Shown: piece by piece, positions 4,990 to 55,069 of the stretch
Layout of the letters: every line of letters begins with the position of its first letter
How positions within the stretch are numbered: the stretch's first letter is position 1
Virus record (IMG/VR): IMGVR_UViG_3300037067_011302
Span: 64,001 to 128,000 of that record
Length of the DNA: 64,000 nucleotides
Origin: a virus
Taxonomy: Duplodnaviria; Caudoviricetes
Reading direction: 5' to 3' (one strand)
Notes under the pieces: generated by a model
The model's input: only the letters and a program-made list of their open reading frames with translations
The model's database searches: none
Told to the model about the DNA's origin: nothing
Translations under genes and position numbers: made by a program

Positions 4990-5173
4990 AGCTCACACCT
5001 CAATGTCTAAGTATCGATGCGAACCTGAAGTTGACGACTCACCTTCACTCAACGCCGTCTTCCTTCGAAATTGCAAACACGAACACGAAGCAGATGACAA
5101 TCCAAAATATGATCTCGAGGACCTTCGCCAGAACGTCCATTGCAGTACCTCCAAATTGAAGATGATCAGACAA

Positions 5174-9640: not shown

Positions 9641-9669
9641 AAAAAGGGTCCCGGTTTTCCAGGACCCTT
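9641..9669 (-). terminator. Intrinsic terminator after the major capsid gene
   Basis: AAGGGTCC...GGACCCTT stem with a T tract on the minus strand. Confidence 0.8.
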
Positions 9670-9697
9670 CTGCTGCCACCTAACTAGTTGAAACTAA

Positions 9698-13352: not shown

Positions 13353-13387
13353 TCGTTTCTCCGTGATCACTAAGTATGCGGTGCTCG

Positions 13388-13868: not shown

Positions 13869-14132
13869 TCAAACCTTCTTTGACGCCAACTTCTTCAGCA
13901 ACAGGCGCTTCTGCTCGCGTAGTGTCGCCAATCTCTTAGCGACCTTACGTTCTTCGATCTTCAACGCCTTGTACATGTCGATCTTCTTCTCAAGAGCATC
14001 GGCATACTCATCGGCGTCGACCTCTTCAGTGTCGGAGGCAGCATCCTCAGTGCTCTTCTCTGCGCCAAACTTCGCCGCTTCTTCCATCACGAGTCGCTTC
14101 AACATCTCATTCGTCAGCTTCACAGACTTCAT
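13869..14132 (-). CDS. Small head-module protein with LKRLVMEE leader
   Basis: ATACTTA upstream; leader motif; acidic/basic coiled coil. Confidence 0.7.
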   Translation of the reverse strand: MKSVKLTNEMLKRLVMEEAAKFGAEKSTEDAASDTEEVDADEYADALEKKIDMYKALKIEERKVAKRLATLREQKRLLLKKLASKKV

Positions 14133-14210
14133 AGTGTACCTACTCGTCAGGTAAGTATCGACTAATCATCACTTACGTTGTCAAACGCCATCAAGGCGGC
14201 AACGTGAGCG

Positions 14211-14618
14211 TCATGTGCCCAAAAGCTTTTTCTGTGGTGTGGCAAACGCTAGGTCTGCCCAACGAGACGAACCATCTCCAAACACCTCCTCAGGAGTTCC
14301 GTCAAAGTGCTCAAGGCCGGCGCCGGCGATGCCAGAAGAATCTCCCTTGATCATCTCGGGCAGCGTCGTTGCCGCAGTGTCAGCAAGAATCGCCTCCATG
14401 AGTGGGTTACCACCAGCGTTACGCTTGATGGCCTCTGCGACCTCTGGTGACGGTCCGGTGGGCCTCTGCTGCCTCATGCCAATAGTTCTCTGTTGCTTGG
14501 GTGACTCGCTCACCTGGGGACGGCGGTGTTCCGTCAACGCTCCAGACAAACCCTCGTCAAGGATCTCAACCAAGCACTCCTTCACAATCTTCTTCAAGTC
14601 ATCCCGCGACAGTTTCAT
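14211..14618 (-). CDS. Head-module protein with LKKIVKECLVEIL leader
   Basis: GGAGG RBS; leader motif. Confidence 0.7.
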   Translation of the reverse strand: MKLSRDDLKKIVKECLVEILDEGLSGALTEHRRPQVSESPKQQRTIGMRQQRPTGPSPEVAEAIKRNAGGNPLMEAILADTAATTLPEMIKGDSSGIAGAGLEHFDGTPEEVFGDGSSRWADLAFATPQKKLLGT

Positions 14619-15117
14619 CACAACCTCCAAAAAACTTTCCGACCACGTCGATCGTCAGACCGTCGAGGTGATCCACCTCGTGCTGCACGATCCTCGCCGC
14701 CACTCCGTCGTACACGACGGTGGTTGGCGTTCCATCCAAACGAACATACTTCACGGTGCACGCCTCGCAACGTTCAACGTCGTACAGTCTGCCGGGCAAT
14801 GACAAGCATCCTTCTGAACGAACTGACCGCGCTCGAGAACGACCGACGATGATCGGATTGATCATCACGATGTTCTTTCTGTACGACACGATGATCACTC
14901 GCAACGATGAACCGACCTGGGGTGCGGCTATTCCTGCACCGTGCATTGAGCAGACGATGGAATTCATTTCGTCGACCAACAATCGAACGCCATCGTCAAT
15001 CGCGACAATCGGAACGCAAGTTGTGCTCAATATCGGATCTGGGACACGCCTCAACGATGCAACGACTGGAACAACGTATGCACACGACATACAAAAGAAT
15101 TCTAACTCACGCGTCAA
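14599..15117 (-). CDS. def: Peptide deformylase
   Basis: All three motifs present: GAGIAAPQVG, EGCLS, QHEVDHLDG. Confidence 0.95.
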   Translation of the reverse strand: MTRELEFFCMSCAYVVPVVASLRRVPDPILSTTCVPIVAIDDGVRLLVDEMNSIVCSMHGAGIAAPQVGSSLRVIIVSYRKNIVMINPIIVGRSRARSVRSEGCLSLPGRLYDVERCEACTVKYVRLDGTPTTVVYDGVAARIVQHEVDHLDGLTIDVVGKFFGGCDETVAG

Positions 15118-15501: not shown

Positions 15502-16554
15502 TCATCGAGCGTTTAGAATCTCATTCATGATGCGATCGATCCTGTCGCTGCGGTTGAACACCCTACTCAGTTCCGCCGCCGTGATGACCCTTCCCTCTGG
15601 GAGCATGAACGCCTGAGCCGTCGATGGATCAGAAACGACGTCGAAGCAGATCAACTGAAAGTCATCCTGAACAACGAAGTAATCGCCTTGTTGCTTCGTC
15701 GAACCAACGCCCCGCGAGGAGATTCCGAGCTTGACGCCTGACTCGACGAGGCCCTTCAGGATCTGACCTGACGGAACCTTATCCAAGATCTCAATCGCGC
15801 CGCGGGCCTCATTTCCCTCCATCTTCACCTCGCGCACGATGTGAGAGACATTCTTGAGGTTGACGACGGACGTCTCCGGATGATCGCAGTTGCCCGTCCA
15901 ACAGACGTGACCATTCTGCTTCATTAGCCACGTTCCGTTCTTGACGGTCACACAATAGACCCTTCCATCGTAGTCGATGACGTCGACGCTCTCACGAGCA
16001 ACTCTCTGAAGACGTTCACTTGTGAACAGTTGAAAACTCGTCGAAGAGTTCTTCACTTCATCGAACAACGCACTAGACTTAATCTTTTTTGGTCGTCCGC
16101 ACAAGTCAGTGATCAAGATGTTGTGGTTTGGCGTCAGACACACGTCATGTGCACGTGAAACACGAATTCTGTGCATCGGTCCACGATACCTACGATCGAT
16201 CTTCCTATCGATTCGTTGAAATTCAAGTTCATTGTTCTCAACGTTCAATGTCGCAATGACTTCATCGTTGGCAATGTCCTTGATTGACTTCCAACCATTC
16301 ACCGTGTAAATTTCAGTCTCAGGTGGAACGCATTCACCCAAGCTCCTGTTTTCATTGATGAATTTCTGGTAGTTTCTGATCTCACGCTCGAGAATCGCCT
16401 TCGGGTAAATTCTACCGTTCTGGTTCAGAGCATCCGCCTTCTGCATCAGGCCGCGCAGGATGATCCTTCCGTCGTTCTTCTCGTACGATTCCTTGATCAT
16501 CTCGGGCGTGTACTCGAGCGGTTGAAACGAACTGATGAGTCTAAGTTCAGACAT
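15502..16554 (-). CDS. Prohead protease (T4 gp21-like) containing a mini-intein
   Basis: NQNGRIYP; GE|CDHP; GISSRGVGS; FDVVSDPST. Confidence 0.93.
   Translation of the reverse strand: MSELRLISSFQPLEYTPEMIKESYEKNDGRIILRGLMQKADALNQNGRIYPKAILEREIRNYQKFINENRSLGECVPPETEIYTVNGWKSIKDIANDEVIATLNVENNELEFQRIDRKIDRRYRGPMHRIRVSRAHDVCLTPNHNILITDLCGRPKKIKSSALFDEVKNSSTSFQLFTSERLQRVARESVDVIDYDGRVYCVTVKNGTWLMKQNGHVCWTGNCDHPETSVVNLKNVSHIVREVKMEGNEARGAIEILDKVPSGQILKGLVESGVKLGISSRGVGSTKQQGDYFVVQDDFQLICFDVVSDPSTAQAFMLPEGRVITAAELSRVFNRSDRIDRIMNEILNAR
15889..16332 (-). mobile_element. Mini-intein (148 aa, no endonuclease)
   Basis: Starts CVPPETEIYT.NGWK; block B TPNH; VYCVTV; ends WTGN with +1 Cys. Confidence 0.9.
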
Positions 16555-17438: not shown

Positions 17439-20400
17439 TTAACTATCATCGCGATCCGTGAAATCATCGTCGTCGTCATCAAGCTCGACGATGCCGTCGA
17501 CCTCGTCCTGCACGTCGCGCTGCTCCGACAACACTCGCTCGCGTGGAGCGGAGATTGCGCCGGCGGACTGCGCGTTCCTCAACATCGACAGCACGTCTGG
17601 GCCCAATCCGATCCTAGGACGAGCAGGAACTGACTCCTTGAACGGATCCTTCAACCACGAAGTGTCGTTCGGGTCGCTCAGCGACGAAGCACTGGGACCG
17701 GTCATCTTGACAAAGTCAGGACGGTTCGTCTTCATGCGACGACGGGAGCGATTGTAGAGGTACTTGTGAAGCGTTGGGTTCGGCTTCACCGGAGTGCGAT
17801 CGTTGTCCTGGACGATCTCGAGGTCATCCTGAGCGTTGTCAGAAGACGTCAAGAGCTCAAGCTCAGGAGAACCCTCTTCTTCAGGCTCCTCACTCGCGTT
17901 CTCAGGGGCAGGCTCCGTGGGCTCCTCAGCGGGGGCCTCAGTACCACCCTCTTCACCGCCTCCGGCGGCACCGAATAGGCCCTCAGTGGTCGTGTCATCA
18001 CCCTCGCCTCCTCCGCCACCGCCGGCCGCGACCGCCGCCTCGAGCTGAGCGTCGAACAGTTTGTCCTCGGTGCGCTGGCGCTTGATCGCCTTGATCTGCG
18101 CGGCGTTGAGCCCCCAGACCTCGCTCATGACAAACTCCGTCGAACCCATCGTCTCGGGCAGAGAGGCGGCGATCTCAAACTTTTGACGCCACAGCTCAAG
18201 CTTCTGTTGCTGAGCGACCGTGGACGGGTTGGACAGGCGGAGCGTGAAGTTTTGGAGGTCGTCTCCGTCGAACCCATTCGCGTACAGGTGGATGACGGCG
18301 AGCTTGTTGAGCTCGGCTAGGATTGTCTTTTGGATGGAGGTGATTGTACGGGAAAAACGTATATCCTCCTGGGCGAGTGTAGAACGACTACTATTATGAA
18401 CGAACACTGCACTTAGTACACTCGTAGATGCACAATCATTGGTATTCAAAGGAGATTGTGAACGACAAATGATCGGGAAGTTATGCGTTCCTTCAATTTC
18501 GAGATCATAAACAGGGACAGAGGAGTTAACTCTTGAGTCTGAGGAATTAACTCTTATGAGTTCAATGTTAACAATTTTATGATTGCGACCGACGGACGTG
18601 AAGAATTCAAAAGCAGTCATTCCGTGATCACTCAACATACCTTTCAAGGCAGCACAACCAAAGTTGATCAATCCAGATCTACTCGCTGCAACAACATCAT
18701 CTGACGAACGCAATCCATGCTTCAAACACGCTTCACGTGCCGTCTCAGGTGTCAAGTTCAATTCTGCATTTCGTCTTGCACGTTTAACACCCCAGAGAAT
18801 GTGTTTTTTAGGAACATAGTTCAATGCCTTGACGGCAAAATCATACCAGTCCTCAAATCCTGACCTCATGATCAGAGAACGCACGTATGAAAATCCAATA
18901 GGTAACGAAGCGATTGCAGGAATCGTCTTTCTGCTCCAACACGACCACTCGTACGCTTCGTTCTCCTTGCAGAACTTGATCAGCCAATCGATCGTGTACT
19001 CAGCCTTCTTGCGACGAGACCAGTGACCATCGCCGACGTACTTCGAACGGTACTTTGGATCGTTCCACAGGTCCCTGTTCTGTTGTGACTTGACAGCGCG
19101 GTACTCGGGATCGTTCCAGTTGTCACGCATGACGCTCGACATCTTTTCGTGGATCTCATCACCGTGCACCCATGCACTCAGTGCAGAGTTCTCATCAGCG
19201 TGCTGTGCCTTCATCTGCACCGACTTGAGCTGCCTATGATGAGGAGACTTCAGTGCTGCAATCTTGTTTATCTCTCTGCGCTCAATGACGTCAGGTCGAA
19301 ACCACGTTGTCTCGAGGTTGTCAGAATGGAACTTCCTGTGTTCTGCCCACGTCATCTCAACGAGGTTCTCTGGTTGGTTGTTCTTCTTATTGAAGTCAGC
19401 ATGGTGAATGACTCGACACTTGTTGACCTTGTGATTTCCACCGGTGACATGTTCGTTCACCAACTTATGCGTGTATGACCATTCGCCGTCATTGTTCTGC
19501 AGGACCATCTCATACCCATCGATCAGGTCAAGTCCACCACGCTTCTTGTTGACGGACAATCTCCTGTACAACGGCATCAGGCTGGTCTCTGGAGTGAGCT
19601 CGTCGGCCCTGCGGTACGATCCGTCCCTGAGCATGAACGGATGATTTCCGGTGCATTCTAGAACAGACCCGTCATCCAACGTCACTCTGTAGAGCTCGTC
19701 CACCGTCTTCGTTTGCCACGCATTCAGGATCCTCGACGGAACGATTGTTCCATCTTCCAGAGATGAATACGTCCACAGAATTGGTTTTTCTGCACCCTCA
19801 AAGAGACGCGCGAGTTCGTCGATCCTCTTTGAAGTACCGTCCAACAGAGGAATCTCTGTGTCAGGTGCCAAGCACAGCATGTCGTCGTAGCCGAGATATG
19901 CCCTTGGTATCTTTAAGGCTGCAAATAATTTCTTCTGTATGTACGAAACATCTTCTACGGCCGCTGTATTTTGTCCACCCGGCAGAGTGTCGATCTTCGT
20001 TCCTGTCTCGGCGCCTCGCACCGGGACCAGAATGTCCTCATCGACCGACAAAGCATTGTACCTCAGGTCGACCCGTCCCTGCGTTTGGTCGATCACCTGC
20101 GAGGTCCTGAGCTGCTTCCTCTGCTCTTCAATGTAGTTCTGCACGTGCTCGGGTGGAACGTTGCCCACGTCGATGTAGAAGACCCTTCGCTCCGGCGCTC
20201 GGATCACGCGGTACACGAGCATTGCGTCCTCGATCAGGATCAGCTGTCGCCAAATCCTCCTAGCCGGATCCAAGATTGATGACCCGTAGGGCAGGAATTG
20301 GTCGTTGCCGAGGATCCTAAAGTGCAGCACCTCCCAATTCTCGAGCGTCCTGTTGCCAAGAGTGACCCACCTGAAGCGTACGGCGAATGGGTCGTTCCTG

Positions 20401-22055
20401 TCGTAGTTTTCCTCACGTTCAATCTCGTTGACGGGAATCGGGAATGCATTCACCACGCCGTGCTCCTGAGAGACGTTGACGTACAGGAACGCATCGCCAA
20501 ACTTCACGACGTTTCTGACCCACGGGCGCAGGTTGAACTCAACGTTCAGGACGTTGTAGTAGAGCTCCTCGAGCGTCTCCCTGATCTTAGGATTGTCACT
20601 GTGTATGTGGAGGATGCGGCCCTTATCATCCTGGGCAACTGTTTCGTCGGAATAAATATCTAATGCCGCGCTTATCTCCGGAGTCAGCTCCATCTCGCAA
20701 TTGTGAACAATTACAGTACCTTGCGTAATAAGTCTATACTTTTGTGCTGATTCAACACTGCAAGATTTAATTCCAACGTCACAAGATTTAACTCCTTGAT
20801 GATCGCAAGACTTAATTCCTTCTTTTGCGTACTTCGCCAAAGCAAAATTGTGATGTCCGGCAACTTCGAGGTCATAGACGAACATTGTTTCGCCGTGATC
20901 GATGACAGAGACAACCTTATGATTCTGATATCTCTCGACGAAATCGACAAAATTTTCATAACCCTGCCATTTGATTCGATTTATGACCTTGCACCACGTA
21001 GAATTTACTTTTCTCGCCAATCCCTTCAACGTATCTCCGGGTTGATATGCGTCACAAATCATCTGAAATGTCAACGACTTGTCAGCATTTGCATTTTGCG
21101 AGTGTTTTTGATCAGTCCTACCAGCATTAAACCGACCAGGCTTTTCAGTCTTGTTGTACTCGATCCGCCGTTGACGACGACTGTCGCTTAACATTTGAGA
21201 AGTTCTATCGAGATTGATCCTCAAATCGCCATCATTCTGCCAACGCTTCTTCATCACCGTTGACATGTGTTGTCTTGCGGCAGGATCATCAAATCGTTGA
21301 TTGTTGATCTTAGCGTGCAACGACATGTGATCGTGTACCGACAAAACTTCCAAATTTTCTATTCTATTGTCGCGATGTTTGAAATTTTTATGATGTACGT
21401 GCTCTCCGACGATGAGTTGACGATCCAAGATTGATTCAACGACCATGACGTGCTCAGAACGCCAACGTTTCCCATCATGAATGTATCTGTATGGCGAATC
21501 ATATGTTCGTTGATTCAACGGCATCAATGCAGTGTCAGTCGTCAATTCACATGCCTGCAGGTATGAACCATCTCGAAGCATGAACCTGTGATCTGGCGTG
21601 CACTTTATCTCTGACCCGTCGTCCAACGTGACGGTGACGACCTGTCTGACGCCGTTGCACCTCGCGCCGGTGACCTTCGCAGGAACTATTCTGCGCTTCT
21701 CAGTGTCGTAAGAAAACACCCACTGGTTGACGTCACCCGCCTCCCATGCATCAACGATCTCCTTGATCGATAGTGCACCGACCTCAGACGGCATTGCGAC
21801 CAACGTGTCTCCTGCGAGGCAGAAGTCTTGGTACCGCATCAACCGCTCTGAAAGGTTGTACGCGTTCGACGTTATCGTTGCATACGTCGGCGACAGCGAC
21901 TTCTGGAACAATAGCGCACCGGACGTCTTCGACTTGTCCGGCACCGCCAGCACGGTGTCTCTACCTCTGACCTTCCTCCTGACGATCGGGCCAGCCTTGA
22001 AGATCCGCGTCAACCTCTTAAAGAGACTTCTCTGTTCTCGTTCGCTCTTTGCCAC
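17439..22055 (-). CDS. Portal protein (T4 gp20-like) with two inteins; about 670 aa after splicing
   Basis: EDAMLVYRVIRAPERRVFYIDVGN; IDTLPGGQN; KLFAALKIP; EDIRF. Confidence 0.95.
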   Translation of the reverse strand: MAKSEREQRSLFKRLTRIFKAGPIVRRKVRGRDTVLAVPDKSKTSGALLFQKSLSPTYATITSNAYNLSERLMRYQDFCLAGDTLVAMPSEVGALSIKEIVDAWEAGDVNQWVFSYDTEKRRIVPAKVTGARCNGVRQVVTVTLDDGSEIKCTPDHRFMLRDGSYLQACELTTDTALMPLNQRTYDSPYRYIHDGKRWRSEHVMVVESILDRQLIVGEHVHHKNFKHRDNRIENLEVLSVHDHMSLHAKINNQRFDDPAARQHMSTVMKKRWQNDGDLRINLDRTSQMLSDSRRQRRIEYNKTEKPGRFNAGRTDQKHSQNANADKSLTFQMICDAYQPGDTLKGLARKVNSTWCKVINRIKWQGYENFVDFVERYQNHKVVSVIDHGETMFVYDLEVAGHHNFALAKYAKEGIKSCDHQGVKSCDVGIKSCSVESAQKYRLITQGTVIVHNCEMELTPEISAALDIYSDETVAQDDKGRILHIHSDNPKIRETLEELYYNVLNVEFNLRPWVRNVVKFGDAFLYVNVSQEHGVVNAFPIPVNEIEREENYDRNDPFAVRFRWVTLGNRTLENWEVLHFRILGNDQFLPYGSSILDPARRIWRQLILIEDAMLVYRVIRAPERRVFYIDVGNVPPEHVQNYIEEQRKQLRTSQVIDQTQGRVDLRYNALSVDEDILVPVRGAETGTKIDTLPGGQNTAAVEDVSYIQKKLFAALKIPRAYLGYDDMLCLAPDTEIPLLDGTSKRIDELARLFEGAEKPILWTYSSLEDGTIVPSRILNAWQTKTVDELYRVTLDDGSVLECTGNHPFMLRDGSYRRADELTPETSLMPLYRRLSVNKKRGGLDLIDGYEMVLQNNDGEWSYTHKLVNEHVTGGNHKVNKCRVIHHADFNKKNNQPENLVEMTWAEHRKFHSDNLETTWFRPDVIERREINKIAALKSPHHRQLKSVQMKAQHADENSALSAWVHGDEIHEKMSSVMRDNWNDPEYRAVKSQQNRDLWNDPKYRSKYVGDGHWSRRKKAEYTIDWLIKFCKENEAYEWSCWSRKTIPAIASLPIGFSYVRSLIMRSGFEDWYDFAVKALNYVPKKHILWGVKRARRNAELNLTPETAREACLKHGLRSSDDVVAASRSGLINFGCAALKGMLSDHGMTAFEFFTSVGRNHKIVNIELIRVNSSDSRVNSSVPVYDLEIEGTHNFPIICRSQSPLNTNDCASTSVLSAVFVHNSSRSTLAQEDIRFSRTITSIQKTILAELNKLAVIHLYANGFDGDDLQNFTLRLSNPSTVAQQQKLELWRQKFEIAASLPETMGSTEFVMSEVWGLNAAQIKAIKRQRTEDKLFDAQLEAAVAAGGGGGGEGDDTTTEGLFGAAGGGEEGGTEAPAEEPTEPAPENASEEPEEEGSPELELLTSSDNAQDDLEIVQDNDRTPVKPNPTLHKYLYNRSRRRMKTNRPDFVKMTGPSASSLSDPNDTSWLKDPFKESVPARPRIGLGPDVLSMLRNAQSAGAISAPRERVLSEQRDVQDEVDGIVELDDDDDDFTDRDDS
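18393..19874 (-). mobile_element. Portal intein 2 (494 aa) with HNH endonuclease
   Basis: CLAPDT start; CTGNHPF; IHHADFNKKNN.PENL; VYDL; ends VHN with +1 Ser. Confidence 0.92.
18521..18555 (+). repeat. Two copies of the 14-bp motif, 21 bp apart, inside intein 2
   Basis: aggagttaactctt (18521) and aggaattaactctt (18542); encode RVNSS twice on the minus strand. Confidence 0.8.
20700..21821 (-). mobile_element. Portal intein 1 (374 aa) with HNH endonuclease
   Basis: CLAGDT start; CTPDHRF; HVHHKNFKHRDNRIENL; VYDL; ends VHN with +1 Cys. Confidence 0.92.
20762..20820 (-). repeat. Three copies of the 14-bp motif inside intein 1
   Basis: Minus strand reads aggaattaagtctt, aggagttaaatctt, tggaattaaatctt; periods 24 and 21; encode GIKSC/GVKSC/GIKSC. 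Confidence 0.88.
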
Positions 22056-22104: not shown

Positions 22105-22413
22105 TCACTTCAGGACGTCTTTGCCCTGTTGGACCAACTTTCGCACGACCTTCTGCCTGAGCACTGGAGACACAACGTACGACGAGGGTTCCGTCATCAT
22201 CTTGTCGAGCTTCGTGCAGAGGTTGTCAACGTCGTCCAACAGTGCGTCCTTGACGGGCTTTGGCGCTGAGTCCTGATATTCCTTGAACTGCTTCAGCGCC
22301 TTCATCAGCTTCTCTGCCGACGTCACGAGGTCCTTGATTCCGCCGTGGTCAACGTTCGACAATTCTTCATTGATGATCTTGCACAGCTTATCGTAGGAAA
22401 TTTCGCGCTTCAT
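22105..22413 (-). CDS. Small protein with LCKIINEE leader
   Basis: GAGGA RBS and ATATTTA upstream. Confidence 0.7.
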   Translation of the reverse strand: MKREISYDKLCKIINEELSNVDHGGIKDLVTSAEKLMKALKQFKEYQDSAPKPVKDALLDDVDNLCTKLDKMMTEPSSYVVSPVLRQKVVRKLVQQGKDVLK

Positions 22414-22480
22414 GTTTAATCCTCGCACACTTCTAAATATGAACGTCAAAGAATCAGCGCATCATAATGTATTTAGCAGC

Positions 22481-23986
22481 ATGAAGATCGTCCTCGGAAC
22501 ACTACGCCGCCTGATCAACGAGGTCCTGCTCCTCGAGGACCGCGTTTCTGACGCGAAGAAAAAGTACCCTGAACTCGAGGCAGAGATCGACGAACTCGCG
22601 TCCTCAGATCCCTCGGGTTCACAAAAGTACTTGATGTGGAGTGCAAAGCAGCTGTCAGCAGGTGCCGATGTCAATGAACTGATTTCAACGATCGAGTCAT
22701 TCCACCAGAATGCGTCGCAATTCAAAAACAGGGACATCAACGCATATAAGACTCTTGGTGATCTTAAGGACGAACTGAATTCAATCACGCCTTCGAAGAC
22801 TCATGAGCGAAAGGAAGCAAAGGAGTCAGGTGCTAAGAAGATGGGTGAGGACAACGGCTACGAACTCGTCCACATAAAGAGCAAAGCCGCAGCACAGTTG
22901 TACGGTGCAAACACTCAATGGTGCATCACGATGAACGGTATGCCGCACTTCGAACAGTACACTGGTGCGAACATTGTGTTCTACTTTGCACTATCGAAGA
23001 CGCTGCCCGACACGGATCCGTTGTACAAGGTTGCGTTCGCAGTGCACCGTGACGAGAACAACAAGATCATAAAGGTCGAAGGCTGGGACGCGGAGGATGA
23101 AAAATTCGACGAAATTCCCAGTGAATTTAACGGTCTCTTGAGGATCGTTGAACAGGACGCTCCAAAGCAGGAGACGAGCCTGTTGGCGAAGATCAAACTA
23201 GGAAAGGCGACTGAGGAAGAGATAGAACAGGCACTTGAACTGTACGATGACGAAGAAGACATTCTGATCATGATCCTCAATTCACCGCGAACTCCATCAT
23301 CGGTGCTTGCGAGGTACATTAATTTTGATTCTCGCTCAAAGTTACGCGTAAGTTCGAGCCGCATTCGTGAAATTGTTGCAGCAAGAATCGACCCGTCGTA
23401 CCTTCCCAAGATGATGAAGGATCGTGACAATGATGTACGACAGGAGGTCGCAAGGCGAATCGACCCGTCGCACCTTCCTCGAATGATGTACGACCCATCG
23501 TTGTCAGTTCAAGAGATCGTCGTTCGTCGAATCGATCCAGAATTTTTACCTAATCTTCTGCACATTCGTAATGTGCCGGTGCGTCTTGAAATTGCACACC
23601 GAATTGACGTCCTCGAGCTCCCCAAGATGATGGATGACATGTCAACAGGTGTGCGTGCTGAGGTCGCAAGGCGAATCGACCCCGAACGCCTACCTGAGAT
23701 GATCGACGATGAATCGGCGGAAGTTCGTAGGATTGTCGCTGAACGAATCGACGCCGAGCATCTCATTGACATGATCGAGGACGACGACTACTACGTCAGG
23801 AGCATCGTCGCCGGCAGGACGAACACGTTGGACCTTCCACACATGATGAAGGACGAGGACGCGCTGGTGCGAATGCAGGTTGCACTACGAATCGATCCAA
23901 AGTACCTTCCCATGATGAAGAACGACGCCAACGATAGGGTCAGGAACACCGTCAGAGATCGACTAGAACAAATCGTCAAGTCTTAG
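22481..23986 (+). CDS. Leader + WCIT domain + LRV-like repeat protein, paralog B (inverted orientation)
   Basis: Near-identical N-terminus to paralog A; about eight 24-aa repeats; GTATTTA just upstream. Confidence 0.8.
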   Translation: MKIVLGTLRRLINEVLLLEDRVSDAKKKYPELEAEIDELASSDPSGSQKYLMWSAKQLSAGADVNELISTIESFHQNASQFKNRDINAYKTLGDLKDELNSITPSKTHERKEAKESGAKKMGEDNGYELVHIKSKAAAQLYGANTQWCITMNGMPHFEQYTGANIVFYFALSKTLPDTDPLYKVAFAVHRDENNKIIKVEGWDAEDEKFDEIPSEFNGLLRIVEQDAPKQETSLLAKIKLGKATEEEIEQALELYDDEEDILIMILNSPRTPSSVLARYINFDSRSKLRVSSSRIREIVAARIDPSYLPKMMKDRDNDVRQEVARRIDPSHLPRMMYDPSLSVQEIVVRRIDPEFLPNLLHIRNVPVRLEIAHRIDVLELPKMMDDMSTGVRAEVARRIDPERLPEMIDDESAEVRRIVAERIDAEHLIDMIEDDDYYVRSIVAGRTNTLDLPHMMKDEDALVRMQVALRIDPKYLPMMKNDANDRVRNTVRDRLEQIVKS

Positions 23987-26008: not shown

Positions 26009-26320
26009 CTAAGTAGGATGTTCGTCGAATGTCATCACCGCATTGACGATCGCAAGTGCACGTACGTCACTCGGATCAGGTCTCCACCCTTCGTTCCACT
26101 CCTTCCTATGAGGATACACCCACGTTCGTGCACACAGCGAACAACACTCAAACTTCTTCCATGAATCCTCGTCATCCTCGGTCCTCATCACGACGCCACA
26201 CATTCCGCAGTACGTCGGAGCGCGTGCAGTCAATTCAGCAGGCTTGATGACAAAGAATCCACTCGAGTGCTTTCTGATCACACGTCCATGCCCATACGAC
26301 CTCCAGTCACTATCATCCAT
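26009..26320 (-). CDS. Small zinc-ribbon protein
   Basis: CGMC...CCSLC; coupled to the upstream gene. Confidence 0.65.
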   Translation of the reverse strand: MDDSDWRSYGHGRVIRKHSSGFFVIKPAELTARAPTYCGMCGVVMRTEDDEDSWKKFECCSLCARTWVYPHRKEWNEGWRPDPSDVRALAIVNAVMTFDEHPT

Positions 26321-29300
26321 ATTGCACCGACGCATCCTTTTCATTCTTAAAGATCTCAATCACGGTGTCGGCGACATCCTTGATTCCATCAACGTGTGTG
26401 ACGACAATGATTGACTTAAAGTACCTCTTCAACGACGTCAACAGGCGATTACAGGCCTCGATGCCAGACTCGTCCAACGCACTGAAACCTTCATCAATGA
26501 TGAAGAAGTCTGTCTTTGGAAGTGTCGACACGTTGATCAGTGCCACTCTGATCGCAATCGACGCAATCATCTTTTCCATTCCTGATGCCAACTCAATGAT
26601 CCGACGACTGTCACCGTAGTTGATGTACACGTCAAGCGAATCGCTCTCCTCATCAGATTCAAGTTCAATTACGAAGTCAACGATTCCCTGCAGGATCGAC
26701 GCAATCTCACCGTTGATGATCGGAAGCTGTGCGGCAATGATCCTACCAGGAACACCGTGCCTAGAAAATGCTTGAACTATGAGCTCATGACACTTCATCC
26801 GCTGCAACAATGCCGAATGTGCCTTCTTGTCTGAGACACACTTATCAATCGCTGCCTTCGCGCGACCAACATCCTTCGCCGCGGCGACCTTCGCGTCATC
26901 GACTTCCTTTGCTGAGGCAATCAATGTCGCCAGATCGTTCTTCAACGAATTCACTCGCTCTATCGCGGCGCTGTCAAATGCCCGCTCGAGCCTACTCAAC
27001 TCATCTCTCGCAACGATCAACGACGATTTCGTCTCCCCGAGCGCCGTCTCGAGGCGATTAATGTCGATTGTACGCTGCATCGCGTCCATGTGCAGCTTAG
27101 CAACCTTCTTGCCCAACGTTTCAACGCGCTCCAACTTGACATCAACTTCATCTCCCTCCAAATCTTCAAGCGCATTTGAAGCAACATTCAGTGCGTTGAG
27201 TGCATCATCGGCCAATTTTCTCTGTTCATCCAATCGTCCCTTGATCGCGTATGCATCCTTGATGAACCTACACGTCGGATATTCATCACCGCACGGAACG
27301 GTGTCCAACACTGCGGTTGAATTCTCGTATCCTCGTAGGACGGATTGTTCCTTTTCACACGCATGTCGTAACTTTTCAATCGTTGAACGTGCGTTGACCA
27401 ACAAAGAACTACGTCTCTTCAAGTCGTCAACGTCGTACGATTTTAACTCATCTGAAAGAACGTCGATCGACGACACCATCGTTTCATGTTGATTTTTCAT
27501 CGCACCGAGGATCAAAGAAGCCTTCTCCTCTCGCTCCTCCAACGAACGCACGGTGGCGCGCTGCGACTTCACCTGTTCTGAGCGAACTGGAATGATTGTG
27601 CATTGATCCAACGACCTCTTGACAGAATCAATCTGATCACGAAGAGAATCGTGTTCCAACGTCTTTTGCTCAATCAGGTCATCGCACATCACAATCTTGT
27701 CGTGAAGGCTCTTCTCCAGTGAGCTCCAATCACGTTCAGGAATGCCCTTCAATAATCCCTTGACGATGTTGATCTCTTCCTTCGATTGACCGTGGAGCGC
27801 CTGAAATACGTCAAGGTCCAAAAATCTCACCACGATCTGACGACGTTTTGTTGAACCATGATTTATGAACAACTTCAGGTCGTCCTGTGCAGACAATGAC
27901 GTGAGCACAAAGTCGTCGAACGTGCCAATCAACTTCCTGATCACCTTCTCTGTGTCATACCTCTGCTCGCCGTTGAGGTCGACTAACTCTCCGTTGACGA
28001 TCCTGAAGACGTTCAGTGCGGTGTTCGAATAGACGACGCCCTTCTTTGATTCCGTCTTCGTCGTCTGACGTTCAATCACGTAATCTTGTCCGCCGACGTT
28101 CAACACGCAGCGAGCAAGGCAATATGGCTTTCTAGCGTTTATGATGTGAACATTCTTCATGCACCCACGGTCGGTTCCATTGAACAATGCATACGTCAAC
28201 GAACCGACCAACGACGATTTTCCTATCCTATTTGGACCGAACACGCCGACGATTCCTCGTAGGGCATCAAACTCGATGAAGTTTCCTTCACCATACGCAA
28301 ATGTGTTGTCGAATTCCAAACGTTTCAATGACCACGATGTATTCCTCAACACGTCCTGGTCGTTGACTGCAACCAAATTTGCATTGATGATCGCTGACGT
28401 TGACTCCCACTCATCATCATTAACGTCAGCATTCGCGTGAAATTCCTTCAGCAACTTCACCAACACGTCAACGCTTCGTAGGTCATCCTTCTTTAGGACC
28501 ATCGTGTCCATTGCAATGACCGAACTTCGCTGCACGTCGTCGCACTTGAACGTAACCTCTGAAACGTCCAGTGCATTCTTCAATTCATGAGTGACATTGA
28601 CGGCTTCCTTGTGCCTCAATGATTCATGGCTTGAGATCCTCACGCGGCTCTTTGCAGGAAACTTTCCCTGTGAATACGCAATCGTGGCGGCAGCGCTTCC
28701 CTGCCACGGAACGGTGACGTACGGACGATCGTTCGGCAATTCAACGAATGACACATCGTACGTTGAATTGTCCTTGATGTCCCACAACAGGTAGCCGTGT
28801 TCGATCGACTCACCGTAAGAATTCTGCATGAATGAACCAGGATACGCAACGTTTGGAACAACAACATTCACTCGCTTTCCATCGACGATCCTAACCTGTT
28901 CTCTCTCTGACAAGAATTGCTTCCTGTGAATGTCGCCCAACATCGCACATGTGTATTCACTGAAGAAATCGGACGTCATCTCCGACTCAACCTTCCAATC
29001 GATGTCCAACTTAGCACCAGCGACCGGACCGTGATAGCACGCAATGTTTACCTGATCCGGTTCTGGATAAACGTTCTTCCAACCTTCGAGGTCAAACACG
29101 CTGAACACACACCAATTGAACCCACGTTCGAATTCATACACGCCGCTCTTCTTGTACATGTGTATGCGTGGATTTCCCAATAGGTCAATGATCGGCGACA
29201 CAGCGTCCTGTCGACAAGCATTGCTGCAGATGCCATCGTGGTTGCCGAGTATAAAGTGAACCGGCGCAGCATCCGCCAACGACTTCAACCACCAACTCAT

Positions 29301-29480
29301 GAAGTCAATGTATTCAGGAGAGATGTTCTGCGTCTTTGTGTGATAGATGTCACCTGCTATGTAGATGGCATCGACCTTCTTTTTTGTCACGTCATCGATG
29401 AACGCTTCAGTGACCGACTTCACTTCGTCATGACGAGATAACGAGCGAATGTGTATGTCTGCGGCGTGGGCAATCAACAT
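26313..29480 (-). CDS. Fused Mre11/SbcD nuclease + Rad50/SbcC ATPase (gp47-gp46-like)
   Basis: ADIH, AGDIYH, GNHD, GDIH, YPGS; Walker A GPNRIGKSS; coiled coil; ASGME; IIDEGFSALD; VTH. Confidence 0.93.
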   Translation of the reverse strand: MLIAHAADIHIRSLSRHDEVKSVTEAFIDDVTKKKVDAIYIAGDIYHTKTQNISPEYIDFMSWWLKSLADAAPVHFILGNHDGICSNACRQDAVSPIIDLLGNPRIHMYKKSGVYEFERGFNWCVFSVFDLEGWKNVYPEPDQVNIACYHGPVAGAKLDIDWKVESEMTSDFFSEYTCAMLGDIHRKQFLSEREQVRIVDGKRVNVVVPNVAYPGSFMQNSYGESIEHGYLLWDIKDNSTYDVSFVELPNDRPYVTVPWQGSAAATIAYSQGKFPAKSRVRISSHESLRHKEAVNVTHELKNALDVSEVTFKCDDVQRSSVIAMDTMVLKKDDLRSVDVLVKLLKEFHANADVNDDEWESTSAIINANLVAVNDQDVLRNTSWSLKRLEFDNTFAYGEGNFIEFDALRGIVGVFGPNRIGKSSLVGSLTYALFNGTDRGCMKNVHIINARKPYCLARCVLNVGGQDYVIERQTTKTESKKGVVYSNTALNVFRIVNGELVDLNGEQRYDTEKVIRKLIGTFDDFVLTSLSAQDDLKLFINHGSTKRRQIVVRFLDLDVFQALHGQSKEEINIVKGLLKGIPERDWSSLEKSLHDKIVMCDDLIEQKTLEHDSLRDQIDSVKRSLDQCTIIPVRSEQVKSQRATVRSLEEREEKASLILGAMKNQHETMVSSIDVLSDELKSYDVDDLKRRSSLLVNARSTIEKLRHACEKEQSVLRGYENSTAVLDTVPCGDEYPTCRFIKDAYAIKGRLDEQRKLADDALNALNVASNALEDLEGDEVDVKLERVETLGKKVAKLHMDAMQRTIDINRLETALGETKSSLIVARDELSRLERAFDSAAIERVNSLKNDLATLIASAKEVDDAKVAAAKDVGRAKAAIDKCVSDKKAHSALLQRMKCHELIVQAFSRHGVPGRIIAAQLPIINGEIASILQGIVDFVIELESDEESDSLDVYINYGDSRRIIELASGMEKMIASIAIRVALINVSTLPKTDFFIIDEGFSALDESGIEACNRLLTSLKRYFKSIIVVTHVDGIKDVADTVIEIFKNEKDASVQYG

Positions 29481-36574: not shown

Positions 36575-37969
36575 TTAACCTCTCATGCGACCGACGACCA
36601 TCATTCTGACTCGATTGTCAACATCGTCCACCATTTTGTGAAGGTACTTTTTGTCAATGAGGCGGGCGACAGCTAATCGAACAATGGAACTCTCATCGTG
36701 CATCATTTCAGGGAGATATTTGGGATCAATGCGATCAACAACACTATTTCGAACCCTGTCACTCTCATCGTGCATCATCATGGGGAGGTACGACTTATCA
36801 ATCATAAAGGCAACCTCAGCACGAACGAACTTGTCAGGATCATTCATCATCCTTGGAAGATATGAACGATCAATTCGTTGTGCAACAATTTCACGTATTG
36901 CAGCATCCTCATCATCAATCATTAAAGGAACGTATTTTTGATTAATCAAACGAACGGCACGTTCACGTACGTCTCGATTTGCATTCTTTGCCACATGAGG
37001 AATGTGTGAAGGATCAATCCGTTCAAATACGATTGAATACACATCAAACGAGTCATCATTCGTCATCTGAGGTAAGAATTCAACGTCAATATTTTTTGCA
37101 ACTACGTGCCGAATTATGATCCTATCATGATGAACGAATCTCACTAAGAATGGTTTCGCAGCATCGCACTCTAAGATAGATTTCAACATAAAGACATCAT
37201 CTTCGTACAATTTTAGCGCCTGTTCGACATCTTTTTCTGTTGCAATGTTATTCTTGATCTTTGCGAGCATGCTCATCTCTCGCTTCGGAGCGTCTTGCTC
37301 GACGATCTTCAATAGATCCTTCAGTTCATCAGGAACTTCGTCAAGTTGAACATCCTCTGCATCGAAGATGTCAACCTCTAGTATGCTGTTGTCCACGTCT
37401 CGTTGTGCAGCGAATGCAACCTTGTAAAGATGATTTGTCTTCGGTAACGTCTTTGAGAGTGCAAAATAGAACACGACATTTGCACCCGTGTACCGTTCGA
37501 AGTATGAGTGTTCCTTCATCGTGATGCACCACTTGGTGCCTGAACCGTATAATTGTGAAGCGCCCCTATTTTTGATGTGGACAAGTTCGTAGTCGTTGTC
37601 CTCACCCATCTTCTCAACGCCAGACTCCTTCGTTGCCTTTCGTTCTTGTGTCTTAGTGGGTGTGATCGACTTCAGCTCATCCTCAAGTTCCTTCAACGTC
37701 TTGTACGCGTTGATGTCCCTGTTCTTGAACTTAGGTCCATTCTTGTGGAAGAATTCAATGGTCGGAATCAAGTCATTGATACTTGCTCCCATTGACAATT
37801 GCTTCACTCCCCACAACAAGTACTTCTGTGAACCCGACGGATCCGATGAAACTAACTCATCGATCTCCTTCTCGAGTTCAGGATACTTTTTCTTCGCGTC
37901 AGAGACGCGGTCCTCGAGCAGCAGAACTTCATGGATCAGACGACGTAGCGTTACGAGGACGATCTTCAT
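36575..37969 (-). CDS. Leader + WCIT domain + LRV-like repeat protein, paralog C
   Basis: Same architecture as A and B; ATACTTA upstream. Confidence 0.8.
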   Translation of the reverse strand: MKIVLVTLRRLIHEVLLLEDRVSDAKKKYPELEKEIDELVSSDPSGSQKYLLWGVKQLSMGASINDLIPTIEFFHKNGPKFKNRDINAYKTLKELEDELKSITPTKTQERKATKESGVEKMGEDNDYELVHIKNRGASQLYGSGTKWCITMKEHSYFERYTGANVVFYFALSKTLPKTNHLYKVAFAAQRDVDNSILEVDIFDAEDVQLDEVPDELKDLLKIVEQDAPKREMSMLAKIKNNIATEKDVEQALKLYEDDVFMLKSILECDAAKPFLVRFVHHDRIIIRHVVAKNIDVEFLPQMTNDDSFDVYSIVFERIDPSHIPHVAKNANRDVRERAVRLINQKYVPLMIDDEDAAIREIVAQRIDRSYLPRMMNDPDKFVRAEVAFMIDKSYLPMMMHDESDRVRNSVVDRIDPKYLPEMMHDESSIVRLAVARLIDKKYLHKMVDDVDNRVRMMVVGRMRG

Positions 37970-37974
37970 GCACG

Positions 37975-37981
37975 TAAGTAT
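37975..37981 (-). promoter_or_regulatory. Putative late promoter ATAYTTA (representative copy)
   Basis: Same motif, with 0-1 mismatch, within ~25 bp of starts at 5008, 6685, 13371, 14152, 22434, 26010, 49384 (minus) and 22469, 55933 (plus). Confidence 0.7.
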
Positions 37982-48226: not shown

Positions 48227-49384
48227 TCAAGTGCCGGGCGAAAATGCAATCGGGTAGACGATCGTGACAATTCCACCCTCAGGTTGTGGGAAGCTCAGGC
48301 CGTAGAAGGCCCTCGTCACGCAGGAGACGACGCCGCCGTCCGGAATGTCGCCACCGCCGCTCACGTTGGAGACCGTGCCGTCACGACCGATGACGAAGCG
48401 GACGATCACGCGCCCGGCGAGGCTCGGGTTGTTGCGCAGACCGTTCTCGTAGCAGAGGCGGAAGCGGCCGAAGTTCTGGCGCACGATTCGTTGTATCACT
48501 TCCGGCGGGAGCCTCCCGCTGACGCTCGTGGCACCAATCCTCACTCGTGGAACTGCGATCCTGTGTCCTCCTGACAAACCTGCACGTCCGAACCCAAATC
48601 CTTGACCTGGACCCATACCTGCACCATGACCGATCGTTCCAATCGATCCTAGACCGATTCCTTCACCCTTCCCATTTCCTCCCTCGCCGATACCACTCAA
48701 TCCAAGCCCACCAGCACCGTAGGACTCACCGATGTCGCGACCCCACATTGCTCCATTAGCACTCAACGGGTCACTACCTGAGGCACTCTCAAGACCCCAG
48801 ATGGCCGTTGGTGAGTCGGGGTCAGCACCTGCTCCTGAGTTGAGCAGCCCAATCACACCAAATTCAGCAGCATCGCGGAGAGCACGTTGACGAGCGATGT
48901 GAGGATCGACGTTGTCAGAGGGTCCCTTCACGGCATAACGATTTCCACTGAGATCGCTGTTGACATTCCCCATCGATCCCTCTTCGCCCTTTGCCCGAGT
49001 GCCTGTGCCTCCTTCATGTTCATCACGACCTACGTCAACGACGGCTTCATCCCTTTGCTCAAAATCACGTTCAGAAGAAGAATCAACGAGGTGCTTGATG
49101 AAATAGCGCTGATCTTCAGAAACAACATCATCGCCGATCATCGATGACGGAGGCATGAACATTGCCATCGCCGTGAGAACCATGCAACCAGACGATTTGC
49201 TGTCATTACAATTAAAGTAAAGTGCTTCACCTGATTTTTTTGCCTGTTGTGCAAACCGACGTATGCTAACATCTGGCATCGCATCAAACAACGTTTGTGC
49301 AAATTTCATGCCAGTGTTAATTGCATGCATATCGTTTTTTGCCTCACGTAACACTTCAACAACATATGATTTTAACACATACAT
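48227..49384 (-). CDS. Host-derived AgmX/PglI (GltG-type, TonB-C-like) periplasmic region fused to a phage N-terminus
   Basis: RAKGEEGSMG; GGLGLSGIGEGG.G.GEGIGLG; GRLPPEVIQRIVRQNFGRFRLCYE.GL..NP.L.GRV.VRFVI...CV...F..L.FP.P.GG.V...YP. Confidence 0.85.
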   Translation of the reverse strand: MYVLKSYVVEVLREAKNDMHAINTGMKFAQTLFDAMPDVSIRRFAQQAKKSGEALYFNCNDSKSSGCMVLTAMAMFMPPSSMIGDDVVSEDQRYFIKHLVDSSSERDFEQRDEAVVDVGRDEHEGGTGTRAKGEEGSMGNVNSDLSGNRYAVKGPSDNVDPHIARQRALRDAAEFGVIGLLNSGAGADPDSPTAIWGLESASGSDPLSANGAMWGRDIGESYGAGGLGLSGIGEGGNGKGEGIGLGSIGTIGHGAGMGPGQGFGFGRAGLSGGHRIAVPRVRIGATSVSGRLPPEVIQRIVRQNFGRFRLCYENGLRNNPSLAGRVIVRFVIGRDGTVSNVSGGGDIPDGGVVSCVTRAFYGLSFPQPEGGIVTIVYPIAFSPGT

Positions 49385-49465
49385 AAATAATATGTATTAT
49401 TCGCGAAATCGTGAAAAAACGTCTGGTGTTGGGCAAATGAACTGTCGATATGTGAAACTCATTTG

Positions 49466-49762
49466 CTAACGATCCGCCCAGAAAGAACGTCTTTCCTCTG
49501 CCACTTTACGAACTTTCGGGTCAACGTCATTCAACATTGATTCAACGTGTTGACCAATCCTGAGCACGACCTCATATCGCACGTGGCTATCATCGTCTTC
49601 CATCATCTAAGTGAGGTATTCTTTGTCAATGTGTTGAGCAACAAAACGACGTACTCTTATGCTCTCATCGTTCATCATCTAGGGGGAAGCAGCAGCACGA
49701 TCTTCTAGAAGGACGATCGATTCCCTGATCAGACGTCTCAACACGAAAATACGCATCTTCAT
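49466..49762 (-). pseudogene. Degenerate fourth paralog (D) of the leader/LRV family
   Basis: MKMRIFVLRRLIRESIVLLEDR joined directly to about 3 repeats; in-frame TAGs at 49679-49681 and 49607-49609. Confidence 0.75.
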
Positions 49763-54243: not shown

Positions 54244-54837
54244 TCATCCAACGATCCGGTCGACGATTCCAAGTTTGATCGCCTCTTCGGCCGAGAAATA
54301 GCGATCCACACCACACCTCATGATCTCCTTGACTGCCTTCAAGGACATCTTCGTCTCAGACGCCAATGCCTGTTCGGCAAGTTCCTGACGACGTCGAATC
54401 TCTTCGGCGGTATTGACAAGTTCAAACACGTTCCCAATTGCACCTGCCGACAGAGGATGAATCATCACTCGTGCCGTCCGACCGATCAACCTCTCACCCT
54501 TCTTGCCGGATGCAAGAATGAGCACGCCTGCTGATAGGATCTTTCCAAATCCAACAGTGTACACTGGCGATGGAAGGAACTTGATGACGTCGTAGAGGTT
54601 GAACATCTCATCGACTGAACCTCCATTCGTTGAGACGACGAGCCTGATGGGATTTTGGTTGATCCTGGACAGTTCAAACAACTGCAGCACGACCATCGAA
54701 ATCATGCGTTCAGTGACATCGCCGTGCAACATGACAACGCGTGAGTCGAGCGACATCATCTGTGGCTGTTGTACCGAATCATCGTAAGACTCGTCAGGAC
54801 AGTTATTTCGAGATTTGTCGACAATCTTCCTACCCAT
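54244..54837 (-). CDS. clpP: ClpP-family protease subunit
   Basis: S.NGGSV; catalytic Ser (ILSAG), His (MIHP) and Asp (DRYFSAEEA). Confidence 0.88.
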   Translation of the reverse strand: MGRKIVDKSRNNCPDESYDDSVQQPQMMSLDSRVVMLHGDVTERMISMVVLQLFELSRINQNPIRLVVSTNGGSVDEMFNLYDVIKFLPSPVYTVGFGKILSAGVLILASGKKGERLIGRTARVMIHPLSAGAIGNVFELVNTAEEIRRRQELAEQALASETKMSLKAVKEIMRCGVDRYFSAEEAIKLGIVDRIVG

Positions 54838-55069
54838 TAGTATCTCCTTGTGACAAAAACACTTTGTTACCTGCGATGACCTTGATAGGATCAGTGAGAG
54901 CACGCATGAGCTCGATGTCCTCAATCTCAAGAGCAAGCAAGTAGATGATCATGATCCTTTGACGTTCCGAAATTTCAAGTGCTGAAATATCACGAACAAG
55001 TTCACGACACAGCGTATTCTCAGCCGCTTGACGTTCCGAATCCAGTTGACCATAGGTCATTGTACTCAT
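54830..55069 (-). CDS. Hypothetical protein
   Basis: Coupled ORF in the operon. Confidence 0.65.
   Translation of the reverse strand: MSTMTYGQLDSERQAAENTLCRELVRDISALEISERQRIMIIYLLALEIEDIELMRALTDPIKVIAGNKVFLSQGDTNG

Follow-up and report, generated by a model that had tools for sequence, protein, structure and literature searches.

We analysed 64,000 nucleotides of viral DNA, positions 64001-128000 of the 184-kb IMG/VR virus record IMGVR_UViG_3300037067_011302 (CheckV completeness 54%). This whole stretch is referred to as the window. Within it lies an open reading frame (ORF) of 385 codons that derives from gltG, a gene of the Agl-Glt gliding machinery of the bacterial family Polyangiaceae. 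The record is a fragment of a T4-like myovirus with an overall GC content of 50%, and it encodes a gp20 portal, a gp21-type Peptidase_S77 prohead protease and a gp23 capsid protein, as well as a fused SbcD-SbcC and a PIN-PhoH gene. The gltG-like ORF is found between the PIN-PhoH gene and large uncharacterised phage genes, outside any glt cluster. Its parts and the elements directly upstream are listed below in window coordinates, where GC3 is the GC fraction at third codon positions and CTD a C-terminal domain.

48227..49384, minus strand: entire ORF of 385 aa; GltG fragment of host origin in a phage
49391..49397, minus strand: ATACATA, a variant of the phage upstream word ATAC(T/A)TA, 6 nt 5' of the first ATG; inverted repeat with TATGTAT overlapping the start codon
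49343..49384, minus strand: codons 1-14, MYVLKSYVVEVLRE; leader-like, terminating in Leu-x-Glu, then Ala
49190..49342, minus strand: codons 15-65; AT-rich N-terminal region, GC3 0.31, with no homology to the host upstream region or any phage ORF or DNA
49148..49189, minus strand: codons 66-79; leftover of the host transmembrane helix, distal half only (…MVLTAMAMFMPP…)
48533..49147, minus strand: codons 80-284; old, ameliorated periplasmic linker including the equivalent of the GltD-wrapping segment
48290..48532, minus strand: codons 285-365; host-like GC3-rich patch over the greater part of the TonB-CTD-like domain; recent gene conversion is its probable origin
48227..48289, minus strand: codons 366-385 and stop; last beta-strand of the domain, phage-like codon usage again, GC3 0.50
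49470..49762, minus strand: pseudogene of a leader-bearing HEAT-repeat family, directly 5' of the ORF; leader joined to the last three repeats, ~350 codons deleted, two in-frame stops

An initial annotation, made from the sequence alone, had described the ORF as the captured periplasmic domain of a myxobacterial gliding-motor protein, and profile and database searches bear this out. Residues 120-383 align with positions 402-647 of the 650 positions of the NCBIfam GltG profile (NF033760; E 3.5e-38). The score of 131.6 bits is below the equivalog cutoff of 650, a full-length criterion; full-length Polyangiaceae orthologues align over positions 5-649, yet score only 287-330 bits. The AgmX/PglI C-terminal domain (NF033768) is matched by residues 294-382 over profile positions 3-92 of 92, at 76.3 bits (cutoff 40). 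The Gly-rich linker and the C-terminal domain align end to end with the host proteins and share linker motifs with them, such as the invariant EGGTGTRAKGEEGSMG block, so that both are intact, as the annotation had it. A search of 5.8 billion proteins returned 2623 matches, the best of which are 70-75% identical across 82% of the query and are ~670-aa proteins with N-terminal FHA domains, Polyangiaceae by their source names. Over residues ~68-385 the phage protein is 62-75% identical to the C-terminal half of Polyangiaceae GltG, and 91-94% identical within the patch.

The best matches are exclusively Polyangiaceae, and the best 80 loci in named genomes belong to Polyangium, Sorangium, Byssovorax, Minicystis and Polyangiaceae metagenome-assembled genomes. 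We examined the genes around the host homologue in a 743-kb Polyangiaceae contig, where the order is GltC-like, 1240-aa TPR, GltE-like, GltF/CglF-like, GltG, 304-aa TPR and 3790-aa TPR; this agrees with the order in M. xanthus, gltC-D-E-F-G-H-I. The host homologues fit the GltG profile over its entire length and have GltC/GltE/GltF-like genes on one side and giant-TPR GltI-like genes on the other; they are therefore true GltG orthologues. With orthologues of this kind as its only best matches, the inference of a Sorangium/Polyangium-like host stands. The host proteins carry FHA domains (PF00498/PF16697), and the alignment of the phage ORF is without the whole region holding both. Pfam and NCBIfam scans of the ORF gave no FHA match. 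The ORF encodes a xenologous fragment and not a GltG proper. Upstream of host gltG, at 9667-9942 of locus L002 and at ~70 other host loci, we also noted a small secreted GltF/CglF-like protein with a mature part of ~50 residues that is nearly invariant (…GYGYxFxDDPLxAGGFGPNDATIRVRP…TLIRPRTSFVPEMLKSVEN).

In the AlphaFold2 (AF2) model of the phage protein, residues 280-385 are confident (predicted local distance difference test score, pLDDT, 74-94), and the rest is predicted to be disordered. The top PDB matches of the end domain in Foldseek are all TonB CTDs, namely 6sly (E 1.6e-3, prob 1.00), 7zc8, 5lw8, 6fip and 2gsk; the E-values are weak and the matches consistent. Pfam TonB_C (PF03544) scores 14.2 bits, below its gathering score of 24.6. 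The roles of the corresponding parts of GltG are suggested by an AlphaFold-based model of the M. xanthus machinery, in which the N-terminal FHA domain binds the GltI scaffold and the central FHA domain and the helix bind the AglR motor (PMC11761067). In the same model residues 371-494 form a flexible linker that spans the periplasm, residues 428-543 wrap a groove of GltD, and the TonB-CTD-like CTD (residues 544-640) sits on the N-terminal domain of GltD, paired with a strand of GltF; GltG has accordingly been likened to TolA (PMC11761067). The phage protein comprises everything from the distal half of the GltG helix to the C-terminus and nothing before it. Co-folding of phage residues 276-385 with the mature host GltF-like protein gave a score of 0.03 (mark 0.32), a result that weighs neither way.

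Homology to the hosts begins at about residue 66-69, in the middle of the transmembrane helix of the host protein. The distal ~12 hydrophobic residues of this helix (…MVLTAMAMFMPP) are kept in the phage and the proximal half is polar, giving a maximum 19-residue Kyte-Doolittle hydropathy of 1.29 versus 1.7-2.2 in the hosts. The phage protein appears to have no usable membrane anchor, though a weak one is conceivable. Codons 66-79 (49148-49189, minus strand) have raised GC3 (0.75 over 12-18 codons) and an nt identity to hosts that reaches 80%, which may be due to chance or to another small tract of conversion. Residues 1-65 are AT-rich (GC 0.38, GC3 0.31). Compared with the host region upstream of the helix they score -0.2 bits by profile, and 210 of 1000 shuffles score equally; blastp, phmmer and blastn found no paralogue of them among the other ORFs or DNA of the phage. 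Extensions in tblastn to residues 6-26 at a few loci were alignment run-on, and residual host homology in this region was rejected. The replacement of the host-type N-terminus by ~60 AT-rich codons, as first annotated, is therefore confirmed. Inspection of the protein revealed no Tat, Sec or lipoprotein signal: 'SIRRFAQQ' and 'SSGC' fit neither a Tat motif nor a lipobox and have no adjoining hydrophobic core.

We favour M1 as the start codon because ATACATA lies 6 nt upstream of it at standard spacing and because the frame is open across the 67 AT-rich codons upstream of M68, which by our calculation has a chance of ~0.01 at that composition. A 318-aa database call (P0002) that starts at M68 is an artefact, its source contig starting 28 nt upstream of M68. 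ATACATA has 3 distinct sites in the genome, all 4-6 nt before an ORF start, one of them M1 of the GltG-like ORF. The related word ATACTTA has 11 sites, of which 9 precede long ORFs by 5-30 nt, sheath-like and scaffold-like genes among them. For ATAC[AT]TA overall, 12 of 14 distinct sites lie 4-30 nt before long ORFs. ATACTTA is probably a late-promoter-like element of the phage that replaces T4's TATAAATA. The T4 late promoter itself was rejected as the signal, with only 3 copies in 184 kb and none at the GltG-like ORF. The late-type motif annotated in front of the gene thus survives as a phage-specific ATAC(T/A)TA word 6 nt before the first ATG, and not as the T4 sequence. We favour expression of the gene from this upstream signal of the phage, with probably late timing. 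No terminator was found between the GltG-like gene and the downstream genes. Usually preceded by G/C, ATACTTA is ~26-fold enriched just upstream of ORFs, mostly structural ones (e.g. 37975-37981, 13371-13377, 5008-5014 and 14152-14158).

Base composition divides the gene into segments of different character. GC3 is 0.31 in the N-terminus and 0.39-0.48 in codons 68-284, rises to 0.89 over codons 285-365 and drops to 0.50 in the final 20; in the hosts it is ~0.8 throughout, and 0.78-0.86 in the region equivalent to the linker. The terminal domain had been annotated as markedly more GC-rich at ~48280-48530, and we place the patch at 48290-48532, with the effect at synonymous sites: GC3 is 72/81 here and 104/237 (0.44) in the remaining homologous part (Fisher p = 1.9e-13). 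Placement by maximum likelihood gave a log-likelihood ratio (LLR) of 27.8, compared with a permutation maximum of 11.4 (n=300), and the step is the strongest within any of 122 phage genes (LLR 32.6; runner-up 24.4). In synonymous-codon identity to the hosts the patch ranks 40 of 86 sequences (median 0.57), as an ordinary host gene would, and the linker is the lowest of the 86 (median 0.30). Consistent with different ages, the terminal branch of the phage protein is ~ten times shorter for the patch (0.042) than for the linker (0.397).

The older part of the gene (codons 80-284) is 62-67% identical to the hosts in nucleotides and 72-76% in amino acids. Within codons 120-284, 95 of the 111 residues that are invariant among 36 hosts are kept (86%), and the host consensus is matched at just 8 of 29 variable columns (28%). 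Because invariant residues were kept while the synonymous sites of the old part were fully re-equilibrated to the phage, the sequence indicates that the gene has long been under purifying selection in the phage, presumably for its ancestral interactions. The composition is probably explained by an old, ameliorated capture and a later conversion, for which an unsampled Polyangiaceae host would have been the donor.

The phage gene derives from a host gltG that lost its cytoplasmic FHA domains and functional anchor and kept the periplasmic parts. We propose that its product would be a motor-uncoupled mimic of GltG, occupying the GltD/GltF sites of the host gliding transducer with no force transmitted. 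With these sites occupied, the machinery would be blocked or uncoupled, or would offer the phage a hold. The ~81 codons of the end domain would probably have been replaced recently by recombination with a Polyangiaceae gltG, which would match the mimic to the current host, and the gene would be expressed from the phage's own upstream signal, probably late. We give this reading, including the history just described, a probability of about one half. The analysis shows where the gene comes from, its architecture, the selection on it and its mosaic composition; binding to GltD and GltF, an effect on motility and a route to the periplasm are inferred. Periplasmic C-terminal fragments of TonB are reportedly dominant-negative in E. 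coli.

Several observations weigh against this proposal. The predicted binding to GltD and GltF rests on homology to an M. xanthus complex that is modelled, not solved. No signal peptide, lipobox or adequate membrane helix was found that would take the protein to the periplasm, where GltD and GltF are. The roles first suggested for it (jamming or hijacking the gliding machinery, superinfection exclusion, aid to genome entry) would all require it to get there. Since there is no export signal, the protein must either reach the periplasm through the weak hydrophobic remnant or by delivery from the virion, or act otherwise. The gene lies beside a pseudogene in a region of turnover and is carried by a single phage lineage, and could be a dispensable passenger. 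The recent import is without an identified donor, the best nt identity in the patch being 84%, and the codon usage of the patch is nearly as well explained by the GC3-rich genes of the phage. A region-restricted protein search for a closer donor reached 92-93% aa identity at best, and at the DNA level the three closest relatives show 80-83% identity over the patch.

An alternative that is compatible with a mimic is that the protein is virion cargo. The first 14 residues would form a capsid-targeting propeptide, like those of T4 internal proteins, that takes the protein into the prohead, where the gp21-type protease would remove it by a cut behind Glu14. The protein would leave the virion together with the DNA, and its flexible GltG linker and end domain would have their role in entry, such as docking on Glt/Agl components. 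T4-type prohead proteases cleave after Glu, and propeptides of 10-15 aa direct cargo to the head (PMC9026906, PMC5694885; for the principle of the capsid-targeting propeptide see also PMC3012670). The phage has such a protease, a Peptidase_S77 (E 1.1e-19) at 15502-16554 (minus strand), whose gene is split by an intein-splicing domain. It also has a leader family, L[KR]x[LF]IxxV[LV][RH]E, with 11 six-frame matches to the loose pattern, 10 of which lie 3-7 residues after an ATG. The family heads at least 10 ORFs, among them the five copies of a HEAT-repeat family and no fewer than four further genes, and is a candidate family of capsid-targeting propeptides. The GltG-like ORF fits the pattern (LKSYVVEVLRE, followed by A) and ends in Leu-x-Glu before Ala; within MYVLKSYVVEVLRE, followed by A, LRE at residue 14 has the hydrophobic-x-Glu form, a short motif for which chance is possible. 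The upstream word is common to structural genes, and a mostly disordered protein made soluble by loss of the helix would suit passage through the tail. Against packaging, the ORF scores only 4.3 bits in a leave-one-out leader hidden Markov model (HMM), rank 15 of 481, compared with 21-26 bits for true members; the loose pattern was built partly from the ORF's own sequence; and T4 internal proteins enter the cytoplasm and not the periplasm. The "phage leader" of the initial annotation is therefore upheld as regards the leader family and the gp21-type protease, both real in this phage, and is weak as regards the membership of this ORF. We regard virion packaging of the GltG fragment as live but unproven, and on balance unlikely.

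The leader family has further members of note. The five HEAT/LRV-repeat proteins (phrog_20647; ~450-500 aa) are encoded at 5174-6679, 36575-37969 and 22412-23986 of the window and at genome positions 19531 (plus strand) and 47779 (minus strand). They start with a near-identical leader, MKIVLGTLRR(L/V)IxEVLLLEDRVS, and four unrelated smaller ORFs start similarly. An 87-aa ORF at 13898-14158 (minus strand), between the protease and capsid genes and with ATACTTA 5' of it, starts with the leader-like MKSVKLTNEMLKRLVMEE, followed by A. It is likely a prohead-core protein, which ties the leader motif to head assembly.

A more elaborate form of the cargo idea is that the trimmed mimic, once ejected, spans the periplasm with its linker, docks its end domain on the GltD/GltF/GltC complex beneath the outer membrane and contacts the AglRQS (TolQR-like) channel with its half-helix. 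The gliding transducer would then serve as a guide or conduit for genome entry, and recurrent gene conversion with the host gltG would keep the mimic matched to each Polyangiaceae host infected, as tail-fibre swaps do. If true, this would be the reverse of the use of TolQRA by Ff phage and colicins, the phage itself carrying the TolA-like part. We consider this scenario speculative and quite improbable.

A second alternative is that the gene is a neutral passenger: a piece of host DNA, acquired in a hyperplastic region, that does nothing for the phage. The patch would then reflect mere recombination between homologous phage and host DNA during infection. The distribution of the gene is compatible with this. 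No GltG-like gene was found in other phages by tblastn of INPHARED (50,697 phage genomes) or by protein and alignment searches of IMG/VR (2.9 million contigs), and in a metagenome scan only one variant contig, Ga0172380_10116023, carries it; locus L144 (79% identity) was rejected as a phage copy, being a host-type gene. Related phages keep the order of 335-, 825- and ~1400-aa genes and have no GltG-like gene at this position. Because the gene is missing there and a pseudogene is adjacent, genes evidently turn over at this locus, and the GltG-like gene is specific to one lineage. The absence of an export signal also fits a passenger. On the other side, the ORF is intact across 385 codons, including 67 that are AT-rich; the retention of 86% of host-invariant and 28% of variable residues with re-equilibrated synonymous sites is the mark of long purifying selection; and the gene has its own upstream signal at standard spacing. 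We find it improbable that the gene is without function, and the motor-uncoupled mimic remains our preferred reading. The neighbours offer little further guidance. The gene had been placed next to baseplate genes, and we could not substantiate this: the downstream 322-, 813- and 1334-aa proteins have no PHROG, Pfam or PDB sequence match, and neither Foldseek nor a wide structural search returned a match to a reasonable model of the 322-aa protein (pLDDT 74.6). Nor did the literature searched hold a precedent for TonB-like or gliding genes encoded by a phage.

The history of the patch can also be read differently. The patch could be part of the original capture, held at high GC by selection on its codons, by an RNA element, by an antisense frame or by another local constraint, with the short branch reflecting stronger constraint on the end domain. 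A GC3 of 0.89 over 81 codons is also attained in the capsid gene of the phage, so that a high value is no proof by itself. The patch fits host codon usage better than the high-GC3 usage of the phage by only 4-7 units of log-likelihood (lnL), a value equal to that of real host patches and at the top of the capsid-gene windows, so that the two are barely separable. In a within-amino-acid shuffle the position-specific synonymous similarity was mostly codon usage (p 0.06 and 0.16), and thus not above expectation. Together with the lack of a donor above 84% nt identity, these results speak for an old patch, as does an antisense ORF (48284-48574) overlapping the patch, although GC3-rich coding sequence can be expected to produce long antisense frames anyway. 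Codon selection acts gene-wide, yet the rest of the gene has a GC3 of 0.44, below the phage gene mean of 0.59, and the step is the sharpest among the 122 genes. Both boundaries of the patch lie within host-invariant stretches, where crossovers are expected, and the last beta-strand of the same domain is phage-like again. Patch and linker are about equally conserved among hosts, and stronger constraint on the patch is not apparent there. An old patch is accordingly an improbable explanation. The annotated refreshment of the domain from the host is supported, though not proven, by the GC3 step, the host-like patch and the short protein branch; a close donor and a synonymous match beyond codon usage did not emerge, and the GC3-rich genes of the phage are similar in codon usage. 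The capsid gene (9698-11599, minus strand) and a few others have a GC3 of 0.72-0.78 in this 50% GC genome and a codon usage almost inseparable from that of Polyangiaceae genes, consistent with adaptation to the translation apparatus of a GC-rich host.

An assembly chimera, in which host reads were joined into the phage contig over the conserved end domain, would explain the host-like composition of the patch and is highly improbable: the tract is internal, which requires two switches within 250 nt, and the same structure across both junctions is found, with 7 single-nucleotide polymorphisms (SNPs) relative to the record and one of these inside the patch, in the independent 2156-bp JGI contig Ga0172380_10116023, which runs from codon 59 to the end of the gene (linker, patch and phage-like tail) and on through the spacer and the complete 322-aa neighbour into the gene that follows. 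This variant contig counters the possibility, raised with the initial annotation, that the GC-rich segment is a misassembly of host reads.

Elsewhere in the window, the portal region (17439-22055) holds the gp20 gene with intein and HNH insertions, and a peptide deformylase gene (14599-15117, minus strand) sits within the head-morphogenesis module. A ClpP-type protease gene (54244-54936, minus strand) lies close to a helicase. The fused SbcD-SbcC is a single ORF of 1055 aa (26313-29480, minus strand) that joins an SbcD-like nuclease to an SbcC-like ATPase.

The Polyangiaceae (Sorangium, Polyangium) are an important source of natural products, and to our knowledge almost nothing is known about their phages. 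The gene links a T4-like jumbo phage of ~50% GC to this family through what appear to be two transfers of different age, a host link that is otherwise hard to obtain. No other phage gene derived from the Agl-Glt machinery came up in 2.9 million IMG/VR contigs, 50,697 phage genomes and the papers searched. It also represents a natural dissection of GltG, with the half predicted to bind GltD/GltF separated from the half that binds motor and scaffold, and could serve as a dominant-negative probe for the AlphaFold-based model of the focal adhesion. If the conversion patch is real, the phage would be keeping a host mimic current by recombination with the host's own gene.

Compared with Polyangiaceae GltG (AgmX) of the Agl-Glt machinery, the phage protein shares the linker motifs and the AgmX/PglI TonB-CTD-like end domain, but it is without both FHA domains and the proximal half of the helix, has an unrelated N-terminus of 65 residues and is encoded in a phage and not in a glt cluster. 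With the CTDs of TonB and TolA the end domain shares the TonB-CTD fold, and an end domain detached from the motor would compete for partner sites; its partners would be GltD/GltF and not TonB-box transporters, and Pfam TonB_C is subthreshold. The dominant-negative TonB experiments in E. coli reportedly used exported fragments, whereas the phage protein has no export signal. The T4 internal proteins (IPI-III, Alt) and the ejection proteins of giant phages offer another parallel, as this phage has gp20, gp21 and gp23 homologues and diverse cargo genes in hyperplastic loci that have in common a short leader ending in Glu; the leader of the GltG-like ORF is at best a divergent member, and the papers and collections searched describe no cargo that stems from a host structure and is directed at a motility machine. 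Like other host-derived auxiliary genes (morons and auxiliary metabolic genes, AMGs), the gene was captured from a host, drifted in codon usage toward the phage and was kept under selection. It differs from these in that only a sub-fragment of a component of a structural machine was taken and that its two-age mosaic points to recurrent exchange with the host gene. Phage genes of host origin are thus a known kind, as are capsid-targeted cargo and dominant-negative fragments of TonB; a phage-borne fragment of a gliding transducer with a two-age mosaic is a new form of these, with no precedent in the collections and papers searched.

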